Assembly (NCBI GenBank): GCA_965216785.1
Contig: OZ244197.1
Coordinates: 3,054,198 to 3,118,197, forward strand
Origin: Thermodesulfobacteriota bacterium
Lineage (GTDB): Bacteria; Desulfobacterota_D; UBA1144; Nemesobacterales; UBA2774
Direction: 5' to 3'
DNA: 64,000 nt
In this document: one piece after another, positions 59,946 to 63,279 of the stretch
Position numbering within the stretch: position 1 is the first letter of the stretch
How the letters are laid out: each line of letters starts with the position of its first letter
Position numbers and translations under genes: made by a program
The notes under the pieces: model-generated
The model's input: only the letters and a program-made list of their open reading frames with translations
Database searches by the model: none
Told to the model about the DNA's origin: nothing

Positions 59946-60452
59946 TTAGCGGTAGGCACTTTTCTGCTTACTGTACAAATACCAAACAACTATTATCATC
60001 AATGCGGCAAGAGAAATTTGCAGAATTACCAATGAGGCTATCTTAAAGTAAGCAAACTCGGGGCTAACGTAACGTATAAGCCAGCCACCGGCTATATCAC
60101 CAAAGGCTGAAGCAAAAGAGCTGACAATCAGTACCAGCTTCCAAAAACCACTAATAGGCGTAAATAGAATAAGGTGGTTTAGAGTAACCAGAATAATCGC
60201 CATTGAGAACAAGTGAAAATGCGCCTCTTCAAGCATACCGAGATAGCTTCTAGGCTGCCTGAAGCTTTCCTCGGACCCCCTGTAGTACTCTACAACAGAC
60301 TCATAGCTGAAACCGACTTGGAGATAAAGAAGCAAATTGGTAATCCATAGGAATACAAAGAACAGGACGGTAAAAACTATTATGAGCTTTAAAAGACTGT
60401 TTTTTGAGATGTCTGGTGATATGAAGAACCGCAACTTAATTACCCGCTTCAC
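59946..60452 (-). CDS. Four-TM membrane protein with His cluster (HxH-x12-H); true start may be TTG 60434
   Basis: Four hydrophobic segments; EEAHFHLFSMAIILVTLNH; abuts the upstream FMN-binding gene. Confidence 0.7.
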   Translation of the reverse strand: MKRVIKLRFFISPDISKNSLLKLIIVFTVLFFVFLWITNLLLYLQVGFSYESVVEYYRGSEESFRQPRSYLGMLEEAHFHLFSMAIILVTLNHLILFTPISGFWKLVLIVSSFASAFGDIAGGWLIRYVSPEFAYFKIASLVILQISLAALMIIVVWYLYSKQKSAYR

Positions 60453-61005
60453 TAAACAGTAGGCCGTTATCCGTAGCTACATTAAATACAGCAAGCACTC
60501 TCCTTATAGAGCTTGTCAGAGAGTTAGCGGTTATTGTAGCCCCTGTTATGTTAGGAATGTCTTTTCCAAGCTTAAGTGAGTTATTCTCTATCCCCTTATT
60601 ATCAAATAGATCCATCCACTTATCTCCGGCCATATATTCGGGCGGTTCAAAAAACGCTAGAACCTCTGCTTGTCTCAGTGTACCGTCCCGATTGATAACA
60701 AACATCACAGTCTCAGACTTTGTTCTTAAATGATGTGTATCTATTATAGCATAACCAAGGGACTTGCTTCCCTTCTTACCCTCATATATCACATATAGCT
60801 TTGACTCGAGCTTGGCTTTTGATAGAGACTCGATTTCGTCCACCTGCTCCTGGGTCAAAAATATCTTAGTCTTCTCAATACTATCCGCATCTGGGAATGC
60901 TGTTTTTAAAGCCTCGTCCCTTTTCATAAACACCCTAGCTTCTGAATTCGGTGCAAAGCTAACCGGCAGCAGGATCAACGCAAATGTTAACAATATTTTT
61001 ATCAT
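60436..61005 (-). CDS. Periplasmic FMN-binding (flavinylation-motif) protein
   Basis: Signal peptide; FFEPPEY; ITGATIT matches the [S/T]GA[S/T] covalent-FMN motif. Confidence 0.85.
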   Translation of the reverse strand: MIKILLTFALILLPVSFAPNSEARVFMKRDEALKTAFPDADSIEKTKIFLTQEQVDEIESLSKAKLESKLYVIYEGKKGSKSLGYAIIDTHHLRTKSETVMFVINRDGTLRQAEVLAFFEPPEYMAGDKWMDLFDNKGIENNSLKLGKDIPNITGATITANSLTSSIRRVLAVFNVATDNGLLFSEAGN

Positions 61006-61028
61006 ACCGTTTTACCGTAAATATTAAA

Positions 61029-61067
61029 CAGAGGGGGAATAGAACATAGCACTCTAAGCCCCCTCTG
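61029..61067 (-). terminator. Intergenic hairpin after the porin gene (partial terminator or mRNA stabiliser)
   Basis: CAGAGGGGG...CCCCCTCTG followed by TTT on the minus strand. Confidence 0.55.
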
Positions 61068-61088
61068 AGCATGTATATTTAACCAGAT

Positions 61089-62660
61089 TTAAAACACATA
61101 TCCAAGTCCGAAGTTAATTTGGTTTTGTGAGTCATTAGCATCGTTATCAAGCCACTGGTATTCGACCTTAACAACGACGTTTGGAATCGGTTTATAATTA
61201 AGCCCTATAGTAAGGTCACTCCTATCGTTCGCGGGATTGCGCTCAAATCCCGAAGGTACGCTTGATTGAGAATCATACTGCTCCCATCTCACGAACGGTG
61301 CCAAGTACTGCGCGTACTGACTGGTAAAATTGGCAAGCGTTAGGAGGTTGTATCCTCCGACTAGATAATAACCCCACTGGCTCTCACCCACCGATTCATC
61401 CCCGGTAAAATCATTCAGGGCGTTAATCCTATCGACATCATCCAATGAGGTATACACTACAAGCGCCCTACCCTCAAACCCTCTGTACTGAAGCTGCACG
61501 TCTCCCTCATACATTTGGAAGAAGCCTTTGAATTTGTCTCCGTTAAACTCTGACTCCTCATTTTCGATCGTCTGGTCTTGCCCTGTGTTCCCGAGGAAAA
61601 TAGAGCCGCCGATGGCTAAATAAGGTAGAGGCTCGTACTCGACCCTACTTACGAATGCAACATTGTTAAATAAAGCTCTGTTACCTTTTATCCTCAGACT
61701 GCGGTTATTGGATGCCTTAAAGCCCCTCGCGTCAAAGCTATTCATTACATACGCCCTATAGTTAATCGAACCCGCGCTCTGAAGATCTATGTCTCCGAAA
61801 ATACCTATACCGTTCTCTCGCCAGGTCGTAGGTATGATAACCCTTTCAACCGAGGGCCTGAATACTCCGAAAAACGTGGTAGGCTCGTGGACTTCGTTTA
61901 CGATTCCGAATGGTGCGAGCAGCAATCCGCCTCTTAAGTTAATCTCCGGCAACAGCAAGAAATCAAGAAGCGCAAACTCTGCCGATACCGACCCCGACCT
62001 ACCATCCTGATTGGATGAAGTAGTACCGTGCTCGAACTCTATCTCTGAGTTAAAGATAATCCTTTCGGTAAATTTATAGCCGAAGTAAAGGACAACTCTC
62101 TGGGCATCGACTATATTATCCTCTCCTTCCCTTATCTGCCCTACTACTAATTCTCCATAGCCTCCGATAGAAAGCCCTCTGTCTTTTAAATAGACCTTTG
62201 AGGCCGCAGGACCGGCGCCGTATACAGGCTCATAAGTAGGCTCGTCTACGACGGACGCCTGCTTAATGTTATCTATTTCTTCTGCAAGTATGTTTAATTT
62301 TTCTTCTATAGACACCAGCCTGTCATCCGGCGTACCCTCCGCCTTAAGCTCTTTGAGCTCATTCGTTACGCTCTCGAGCTTTTTCTCAAGCTGCTCTATC
62401 CTCTCGTCCTGAGTCTCGGTTTCATCATCGCTCAGCCTCTGAGCCACAACGATACTTTCACTTTTCTTCTGTTCCTGGGCTTCTTTATGTATTTGTCTGG
62501 CTCTGCTACTCTGTATCTGAGCCAAATCGTCCGCAAATACCTTTTGATCCACGCTAAGCTCTTCAGAACTAATACTCATTGTCGGGAGTATCAAAAGTAA
62601 GAGCGTTAATACAACACTGTGAGCAGTCAATAGCCCTTTCGTATCGGTAAATTTCACCAT
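61089..62660 (-). CDS. Outer-membrane beta-barrel porin with N-terminal coiled coil (OprO/P-like)
   Basis: Signal peptide; coiled coil; IGGYGE, LYFGYKF, NSEIEFEH, HEPTTF, IIPTTWRE; C-terminal GLGYVF beta-signal. Confidence 0.8.
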   Translation of the reverse strand: MVKFTDTKGLLTAHSVVLTLLLLILPTMSISSEELSVDQKVFADDLAQIQSSRARQIHKEAQEQKKSESIVVAQRLSDDETETQDERIEQLEKKLESVTNELKELKAEGTPDDRLVSIEEKLNILAEEIDNIKQASVVDEPTYEPVYGAGPAASKVYLKDRGLSIGGYGELVVGQIREGEDNIVDAQRVVLYFGYKFTERIIFNSEIEFEHGTTSSNQDGRSGSVSAEFALLDFLLLPEINLRGGLLLAPFGIVNEVHEPTTFFGVFRPSVERVIIPTTWRENGIGIFGDIDLQSAGSINYRAYVMNSFDARGFKASNNRSLRIKGNRALFNNVAFVSRVEYEPLPYLAIGGSIFLGNTGQDQTIENEESEFNGDKFKGFFQMYEGDVQLQYRGFEGRALVVYTSLDDVDRINALNDFTGDESVGESQWGYYLVGGYNLLTLANFTSQYAQYLAPFVRWEQYDSQSSVPSGFERNPANDRSDLTIGLNYKPIPNVVVKVEYQWLDNDANDSQNQINFGLGYVF

Positions 62661-62685: not shown

Positions 62686-62754
62686 GAATTTCGTTATCAT
62701 TATCATCATACCAGAGAGCAAGCCATTGTCAATTAATGATAATCATTCTCATTA
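62686..62754 (-). promoter_or_regulatory. Fur-boxed sigma70 promoter of the porin operon
   Basis: TTGACA (62732-62727)-N16-TATGAT (62710-62705) with TGn extension; Fur-box-like TAATGATAATCATTCTCATTA at 62734-62754; GATAATGATAAC over the -10/+1 region. Confidence 0.8.
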
Positions 62755-62780
62755 TTAGTAGTTTCCTATAAGAAAAGAGT

Positions 62781-62935
62781 AAAAAGAGAGACAGGACATG
62801 GAAGGTCGAATGTCTGAGAGATGAGGAGATCTAAACATGCCCTGCCTCTCTATTTGAATTTCTAGGTATGAAGAAAGGCGGCAAGCTAAGGTAATAGGAC
62901 TGTATGGAAATATTATAAATGCCGCCCTTCCTCAT
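62781..62935 (-). ncRNA. Candidate structured sRNA / 3'-UTR RNA: two 16-bp stems with 36- and 35-nt loops, ending in a U tract
   Basis: Stems 62935-62920/62883-62868 and 62851-62836/62800-62785 are fully paired on the minus strand with two G-U pairs each; TTTT follows. Confidence 0.55.
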
Positions 62936-62970: not shown

Positions 62971-63192
62971 TTAAGAATGCTTATGTATATCATGTCCCCG
63001 TTCTCTAGCTGAATTTACTTCAAGAGCTTCAATGATCATTTGAGTTAATGCGAGCAAATTTCTATGCTCAAGCCTTAATGTTATGGGGCCAAGACTCAGG
63101 TTATATGAGTCACAGCACTCACACTTTGTAATACTCCCTATATTTGAGGAAGAAAGCACCGACGGCCTGTCTATATCGCTTAGTAAACCCAT
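62971..63192 (-). CDS. Small hypothetical protein (73 aa) with CxCC motif and His-rich tail
   Basis: ATG 63192 preceded by GGAGGA; KCECCDSY; C-terminal HDIHKH. Confidence 0.7.
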   Translation of the reverse strand: MGLLSDIDRPSVLSSSNIGSITKCECCDSYNLSLGPITLRLEHRNLLALTQMIIEALEVNSARERGHDIHKHS

Positions 63193-63225: not shown

Positions 63226-63279
63226 CATAATGATAATCAATATCATTATCATTATGCCAGAGAGAATATCTTATGTCAA
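63226..63279 (-). promoter_or_regulatory. Fur-boxed sigma70 promoter
   Basis: TTGACA (63279-63274)-N17-CATAAT (63256-63251) with TGn extension; near-palindromic GATAAT array CATAATGATAATCAATATCATTATCATTATG at 63226-63256. Confidence 0.82.

Follow-up and report, generated by a model that had tools for sequence, protein, structure and literature searches.

On the minus strand of the 64,000-nt window (the whole stretch of DNA analyzed here), two tandem hairpins downstream of a small Cys-protein gene probably make up the 3′ end of a transcript repressed by Fur and would represent a new, convergent family of iron-sparing small RNAs, a reading to which we assign a probability of about 0.77. Loop 1 of the pair complements the translation start sites of three iron-protein genes, and the RNA is for this reason likely to shut these genes off when iron is scarce. 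The original prediction had proposed a Fur-repressed, 3′-UTR-derived or dual-function iron-sparing sRNA; this core was strengthened by comparative and target evidence, while the details of its seed and the part assigned to the second hairpin were not. The features of the locus are collected in Table 1.

Table 1. Features of the candidate sRNA locus and its surroundings, in window positions.
Feature	Position	Strand	Remarks
Promoter P1, TTGACA-17-CATAAT with extended TG	63251..63279	minus	Scores 11/12; predicted start near 63244
Fur-type boxes that overlap each other at the P1 start site	63226..63250	minus	Two mismatches to the E. coli consensus
73-aa Cys protein, DUF6686-like	62971..63192	minus	Match below cut-off; predicted four strands and one helix
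Hairpin 1	62868..62935	minus	16-bp stem, 36-nt loop; family-conserved RNA element
Stem 1 arms	62935-62920 + 62883-62868	minus	16 bp, loop 36 nt
Seed of hairpin 1 (AGUCCUAUUACCUUAGCUU)	62883..62901	minus	Complementary to actA, acnA and leuC ribosome-binding regions
Hairpin 2	62785..62851	minus	16-bp stem, 35-nt loop
Stem 2 arms	62851-62836 + 62800-62785	minus	16 bp, loop 35 nt
Loop-2 core (UCCUCAUCUCUCAGACAU)	62810..62827	minus	Candidate pairing with actA start codon and katG Shine-Dalgarno region; weak, post hoc
U-rich tract UUUUACUCUUUUCUU, 3′ of hairpin 2	62770..62784	minus	Sequence; probable transcript 3′ end
Promoter P2 with its own Fur-type box	62705..62756	minus	Serves the porin cassette
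Porin-like gene heading cassette with FMN-binding protein	61089..62660	minus	Context

Reading back the minus strand from 62935 to 62781 recovered the two tandem stems as first described, separated by a spacer of 16 nt, along with the U tract that had been reported behind stem 2. Both stems contain two G·U pairs and no mismatch, and the strand preference that had been read from these pairs was borne out by folding: the minus-strand fold of the pair (−57.3 kcal/mol, z = −5.9) was equalled by none of 200 shuffles, whereas the plus-strand fold reached z = −2.8, with 1/200 shuffles as good. No standard terminator was called after hairpin 2, because its loop is too long. A genome-wide census of long-loop stems (at least 15 bp, loop of 25–49 nt, at most three G·U pairs) returned 22 in the 3.1-Mb source genome, among which hairpins 1 and 2 were the only adjacent ones. 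Long inverted repeats can also belong to REP- or MITE-like mobile repeats, an origin that the original prediction had itself proposed to check. BLASTN against the source genome found the element in a single copy, which excludes such a repeat, and the occurrence of one copy per genome at a fixed place behind the small ORF, together with the G·U bias, likewise leaves the mobile-repeat reading with a negligible probability. The candidate also fell outside the families present in Rfam 15: its top scores (17–21.5 bits) came from unrelated families and lay far under the gathering scores, none of RyhB, PrrF, FsrA and IsrR gave a match, and five homologous loci gave none with any family.

The proposal that the hairpins lie under a Fur-boxed promoter was upheld by P1 and its counterparts in relatives. 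By regular expression, 19 of the 21 homologous loci have a TTGACA promoter in the position of P1, and in the remaining two one is visible by eye. A Fur-type box with at most four mismatches was found at 18/21 of these P1 loci versus 2/400 background upstream regions, the boxes being scored by sequence against the E. coli consensus. Since feoAB, a fur gene and an operon of imelysin, DHOR and porin genes are preceded by the same box, it points to iron control rather than to control by zinc or peroxide. The source genome, which is 92% complete, encodes three Fur proteins and carries an RNase E/G gene. Between the small ORF and the hairpin, a regular-expression search found an internal promoter in none of the 21 loci; the source genome has a weak, 9/12 promoter-like site there (62967-62939), which lacks a Fur box. 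Two further observations concern the same box type: the second Fur-boxed operon comprises imelysin, a di-haem DHOR and a paralogous porin (L065:4294-8453; G000:C1:2250293-2254455), and a Fur-like box at G000:C1:1174516-1174534 lies some 230 nt ahead of a different 73-aa ORF, which has no Pfam match.

Downstream of the hairpins, P2 (TTGACA-16-TATGAT at 62732-62705, score 11/12; Fur-type box at 62756-62738) precedes a cassette of porin, FMN-binding protein and small membrane protein genes (window 59946-62660). In most homologous loci the porin gene lies immediately downstream of the element, the arrangement expected of a cis-acting attenuator or riboswitch-like element that governs read-through from P1 into the porin cassette. 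We consider such a role highly unlikely, given that the porin is served by a promoter and Fur-type box of its own and keeps both where the hairpin is missing (G008, G027 and G031), that the hairpin persists at two loci where the porin is no longer downstream (L035 and L038), and that folding gave no alternative structure.

Comparison of the homologous sequences showed that hairpin 1 is a real, conserved RNA element. We found it behind the small ORF in 21 genomes from five genera, and a covariance model of the hairpin detected 21 of the 33 family genomes (its own training set) and gave one weak match, at 28.7 bits, among 87 genomes of other families. In the alignment, 13 consensus pairs were paired in 98.9% of 273 cells, while slid registers of the stem paired only 45–84% of cells. 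The covariation that the original prediction had called for was present in this hairpin, with eight pairs changed on both sides and none of 500 shuffles scoring as high, although this shuffle control is inflated by the relatedness of the sequences. Within the 3′ half of loop 1 lies a conserved seed, CCUAUUACCUUAGC (62898-62885), whose octamer ACCUUAGC (62892-62885 in the source genome) was invariant in 21/21 sequences, and the 5′ half of the loop was free to vary in length and sequence. The specific translation-start mimics that had been proposed for the loops were not supported; in particular, CAUACAG, the part of loop 1 taken to be an anti-AUG, was not conserved among relatives.

A pattern search of metagenomes gave 24 matches, eight of which were due to chance; the other 16 were ORF-plus-hairpin loci, some of them near-duplicates, in which the full hairpin follows the small ORF at a distance of 52–78 nt. 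Hairpin 1 was lacking from 12 family genomes, among them fragmented assemblies as well as the near-complete G005 and G008, which belong to other genera; in another of the 12, G027, both the small ORF and the hairpin were absent between intact neighbours. Contigs from two RNA runs (X1 and X2) came from a relative about 94–95% alike and covered the small ORF but not the hairpins; such contigs cannot show absence, strand, ends or level. In G012 (L006:1019) the small ORF starts with ATA rather than ATG and the hairpin is intact; in G028 (L315; G028:C274) the small ORF, the promoter region and the hairpin loop all look decayed.

To find targets, we ranked the −40..+15 regions of 2907 genes of the source genome, called by a simple script, against a 19-nt segment of loop 1, the seed core having been chosen from conservation and the seed borders set after a first look at the matches. 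Ranks 1–3 were occupied by actA (−22.5 kcal/mol), acnA (−21.9 kcal/mol) and leuC (−20.3 kcal/mol), against a background of −8.6 ± 2.8 kcal/mol (mean, sd) for all 2907 genes. Each of these three duplexes covers the Shine-Dalgarno region, and a second scorer returned the identical top three. An enrichment of iron genes among the targets was seen for the loop-1 seed and not for loop 2 (see below). Three Fe-motif genes came out on top in 0/199 full shuffles and 0/199 shuffles that kept CCUUA, with the Fe-motif set comprising 85 of the 2907 genes and the aconitase motif having been added to it after the matches were seen; an equally strong third-best duplex occurred in 5/199 and 8/199 of these shuffles, respectively. 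The cost of opening was 1.0 kcal/mol for the seed and 4.4–7.2 kcal/mol for the targets. We use the name actA for a pentaheme cytochrome gene heading an operon with QrcB-like, NrfD and ActD genes (alternative complex III), a name that rests on operon order and the ActD match, the QrcA and QrcB scores being below cut-off. Alternative complex III takes the place of the bc1 complex.

Ranks 4–13 and 15 of the 2907 held no recognisable iron genes, and rank 14 was a cytochrome c gene ahead of nosZ, so that only a small regulon is predicted. Without windowing, the seed ranked acnA 1, actA 3 and leuC 6. An unconstrained ranking with the whole loop (actA 1, acnA 5) gave implausibly gapped duplexes, and the windowed ranking was used instead. 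A pattern search for further family-wide targets in four genomes produced 26 matches, among which only actA and acnA lay at the start of a recognisable gene. The suggestion that bioB might be a target was not sustained: the bioB-like gene with a AAGGAGAT site ranked 1814/2907 for the loop-1 seed and fell outside the top 28 in both loop-2 windows. The rank-14 cytochrome c gene heads a Sec-dependent nosZ operon (L066:3721-6173; G000:C1:2719717-2722172), and the 23S rRNA (G000:C1:1351897; L331) holds GCUAAGGAACU(A/C)GG, a partial seed complement that is probably due to chance.

We then compared the target sites in 50 genomes per gene, out of 59–60 with a match among 61 searched, having dropped one actA row and one acnA row with unsure starts; these genomes are related, and the site counts are not independent. 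GCUAAGG was present at actA (−30..+5) in 20/21 RNA-bearing genomes, in 6/10 genomes of the same genera in which the RNA was not found, and in 0/18 genomes of other lineages, with median energies of −23.3, −20.7 and −9.8, respectively. The corresponding counts were 14/19, 4/9 and 1/21 for acnA and 1/21, 0/9 and 0/20 for leuC. Within the genus of the source genome, the actA site was retained though the sequence just upstream had diverged. The acnA site was lost in genus g2, and the RNA-less outgroup G040 scored −20.4 at leuC. The weakest sites among the 10 genomes of genus g3, for actA, acnA and leuC alike, were those of G028, which may simply be divergent; its actA and acnA sites have one extra base within the seed match. 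We also observed that acnA leaders (L077, L088 and others) can form a short hairpin in cis that covers the Shine-Dalgarno sequence (ACCUUCC with AAGG or GGAG), which could be an alternative cause of the conservation of the acnA site.

These data bear on a competing explanation, in which the hairpins do no more than terminate or stabilise the small-ORF mRNA and are complementary to ribosome-binding sites only by chance. Genus g2 has a U run after hairpin 1 and genus g1 has one after hairpin 2, any CCUU-rich loop will pair with Shine-Dalgarno sequences, and a swap of seeds among relatives showed no cognate preference, swapped seeds pairing as well as or better than the cognate ones and genus g2 pairing worst with its own. 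However, a terminator has no need of an invariant 8-nt motif in a 30-nt loop, hairpin 1 of genera g3 and g5 lacks a U run, and the CCUUA-keeping shuffles never placed three iron genes on top. The pairing with GCUAAGG moreover extends beyond the anti-Shine-Dalgarno, since the 16S tail is ACCUCCUUU. On this evidence we regard a pure terminator or stability role as quite unlikely.

Another explanation has a protein binding to the motif, which would then be either a word in the DNA (GCTAAGG-N-ATAGGA) common to the locus and its targets or an RNA decoy, for example for the small protein. This would fit the nearly identical word that locus and targets carry on double-stranded DNA, the resemblance of the small protein's predicted fold to PUR/PC4 nucleic-acid binders (Z about 5), and the mixed outcome of the wobble test (8 wobble-keeping, 5 wobble-breaking, 19 transversions). 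The target sites, however, are on ribosome-binding sites and abut the AUG rather than being at the promoter, and the copy at the locus sits in a loop closed by a stem with G·U pairs, which favour RNA. Further, the loop and the actA site of one genome, G066, both differ from the family yet are complementary over 17 bp, and the protein occurs without hairpin 1 in 10/15 f7 genomes. We therefore judge a protein-binding site to be very unlikely, and continue to favour pairing of an iron-sparing RNA with its targets.

The small protein itself was conserved together with its ribosome-binding site and was present in 22/33 family genomes, 10/15 sister-family genomes and 0/72 other genomes of the class. 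The DUF6686 label appeared on a few of its 82 homologues, and our literature search found no paper on DUF6686. The protein has a net charge of −2, and so is not basic, and contains a CxxC motif; the ORF gave no HemP-family match. Its structure model (pLDDT 85.9) has four strands and a helix. Foldseek found nothing at E ≤ 0.001 with this model. The ESM Atlas yielded leads under 0.9 only. The top structural neighbour, which was not significant, was a PURA repeat (Z 5.1, rmsd 4.6, 57 aligned); COMM domains, Borrelia PUR and a PC4 homologue (Z 4.8, rmsd 2.2, 50 aligned) were tied with it. We raise a chaperone role for the protein as a hypothesis only.

In the mechanism that we propose for the iron-sparing RNA, Fur with bound iron would repress P1, and low iron would give rise to an RNA of about 465 nt, with the 73-aa coding sequence and a 3′ end at the U tract. 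The long stem would protect the RNA and hold the seed open in the large loop, whether in the full transcript or after cleavage. The conserved target would be the operon of alternative complex III, which encodes the pentaheme ActA and the Fe-S protein ActB; the seed would cover its Shine-Dalgarno sequence as well as those of aconitase A (in 4/5 genera) and LeuC (mainly in the genus of the source genome), so that translation of actA, acnA and leuC would be blocked under scarce iron. Iron would thereby be spared while P2 turns on the adjoining porin cassette. No Hfq was found in the 92% complete source genome, and the pairing would therefore be Hfq-independent. Hairpin 2 may serve as an accessory module, may be the older of the two and may also act as a terminator.

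Iron-sparing RNAs are described as non-homologous and convergent, and all those discussed in one account target aconitase (PMC9410917). By analogy, the layout here is closest to that of Burkholderia BrrF, which is cut from the 3′ end of Fur-boxed hemP and is reported to have no homologues outside Burkholderiales (PMC7377471). BrrF of Burkholderia cenocepacia shares with the present locus a Fur-boxed promoter, a small protein gene (hemP in its case), a 3′ sRNA without its own Fur box, an iron-uptake cluster often located downstream, and acnA among the targets. It differs in that the small protein here is DUF6686-like rather than HemP, the lineage is Ca. Dadabacteria (for which PMC8115339 served as background only) rather than Burkholderiales, the predicted loop seed covers the Shine-Dalgarno sequence whereas BrrF mostly pairs outside it by its 5′ end, and the conserved target here would be alternative complex III.

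FsrA of Bacillus subtilis, with FbpABC, resembles the proposed RNA in being Fur-repressed and Hfq-free, in pairing with ribosome-binding sites, in its overlapping targets (citB, leuCD and qcrA for FsrA; PMC7430163) and in cooperating with Fur-regulated small proteins. FsrA, however, is an 84-nt stand-alone RNA with a C-rich seed, and the Fbp proteins are small and basic, unlike the CxxC-containing protein found here, with its net charge of −2. Staphylococcus IsrR is likewise Hfq-independent, with seeds in the loops of tandem stem-loops that pair with the Shine-Dalgarno sequences of Fe-S enzyme mRNAs (PMC9410917), but is a stand-alone gene with C-run seeds, and no Rfam match links it to our element. 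RyhB and PrrF follow the same Fur-repressed iron-sparing logic and target aconitase (PMC9410917, PMC7377471); they are Hfq-dependent with a Fur box directly before them, whereas here neither an Rfam match nor an Hfq was found. In RsaC and s-SodF, too, the 3′ end of an mRNA repressed by a metal gives rise to an RNA that silences users of that metal, although the metals and repressors (MntR, Nur) are others and the targets are superoxide dismutases. The target of RsaC is sodA. Both are described as 3′-UTR-derived metal-sparing RNAs, RsaC for Mn and s-SodF for Ni, with sodN silenced (PMC9294342).

Our literature search, which took in few subscription papers, found no described sRNA for Dadabacteria, no description of a deltaproteobacterial RyhB analogue, and none of alternative complex III in connection with a small RNA or a Fur regulon. 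If the reading is true, an iron-sparing response would have originated independently in this uncultured lineage, and alternative complex III would be the first case we found of that complex as the main target of an sRNA. The RNA, the seed and the target sites are defined to the base, which makes the claim testable in an E. coli reporter without culturing, and the DUF6686-like protein gains an iron-regulated context and a testable role.

The second hairpin, for which the original prediction had also expected covariation, proved patchy. It was clear in three genomes of the genus of the source genome and in one metagenome contig, with look-alikes in G007 and G015 (at the same place), G038, G066 and G067, and its covariation was not significant (three double changes, 92/500 shuffles, six sequences). 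With two loop-2 windows, the 30 best-ranked targets included 0 and 2 Fe-motif genes, and actA came at ranks 264 and 1174. Loop 2 can pair with the actA start-codon region, next to the hairpin-1 site, at −14.5, which is weak alone. The gene katG reached ranks 1, 2 and 4 for loop 2, only in windows picked afterwards; its site was present in 3/3 genomes of genus g1, and part of it, GTCTGGGA, also occurred upstream of katG in 2/5 genomes without hairpin 2. We therefore name katG only tentatively as a possible target of hairpin 2.

Outside its training set, the hairpin-2 model matched G038 of the sister family (E = 1.1e-5), where the stem lies about 45 nt behind a TTGACA-17-TATAAT promoter with a Fur-type box and no ORF between; from its sequence, this looks like a candidate stand-alone sRNA gene. 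The G038 element (L360:1430-1575; G038:C7, about 80370-80520, plus strand) is upstream of apbE and a porin. The model also gave an ambiguous match in G059, and those in G027 and G029 look like chance. Its scores in G066 (18.9 bits) and G067 (22.1 bits) were no better than those of hairpin 1 or unrelated stems, so that these two stems cannot be counted as proven homologues. In G066, where a similar stem lies behind two small ORFs, the pairing of the loop with the Shine-Dalgarno sequence and AUG of the genome's own actA is contiguous, includes three G·U pairs and amounts to −24.3 kcal/mol, a value reached by 0/30 loop shuffles and 0/2907 background regions. This actA site is the sole exact 14-mer match in G066, with a second actA copy at one mismatch. 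The loops of G038 and G067 gave no significant pairing with their own actA (8/30 and 10/30 shuffles), and four f7 genomes contained 17 sequences close to the G066 seed match, none of them at the start of a recognisable gene.

Taken further, these patterns would fit a single Fur-repressed, Hfq-free unit that encodes both an sRNA and its own chaperone and has swapped seeds yet stayed locked on the actA operon, an idea that we hold to be rather doubtful. In such a unit, the modelled PUR/PC4-like CxxC protein would be an RNA matchmaker of a kind new to bacteria that might also sense metal, and the RNA would be modular, built of long-loop hairpins that can replace one another, with an anti-AUG in the sister family, an anti-Shine-Dalgarno here, and both in the genus of the source genome. 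In G066, G067 and G048 (L292, L288 and L291), tandem paralogues of the small Cys protein lie behind a Fur-boxed promoter, and the same three sister-family genomes carry a further paralogue (…TFPYGNIQKCSCGGYY…) upstream.
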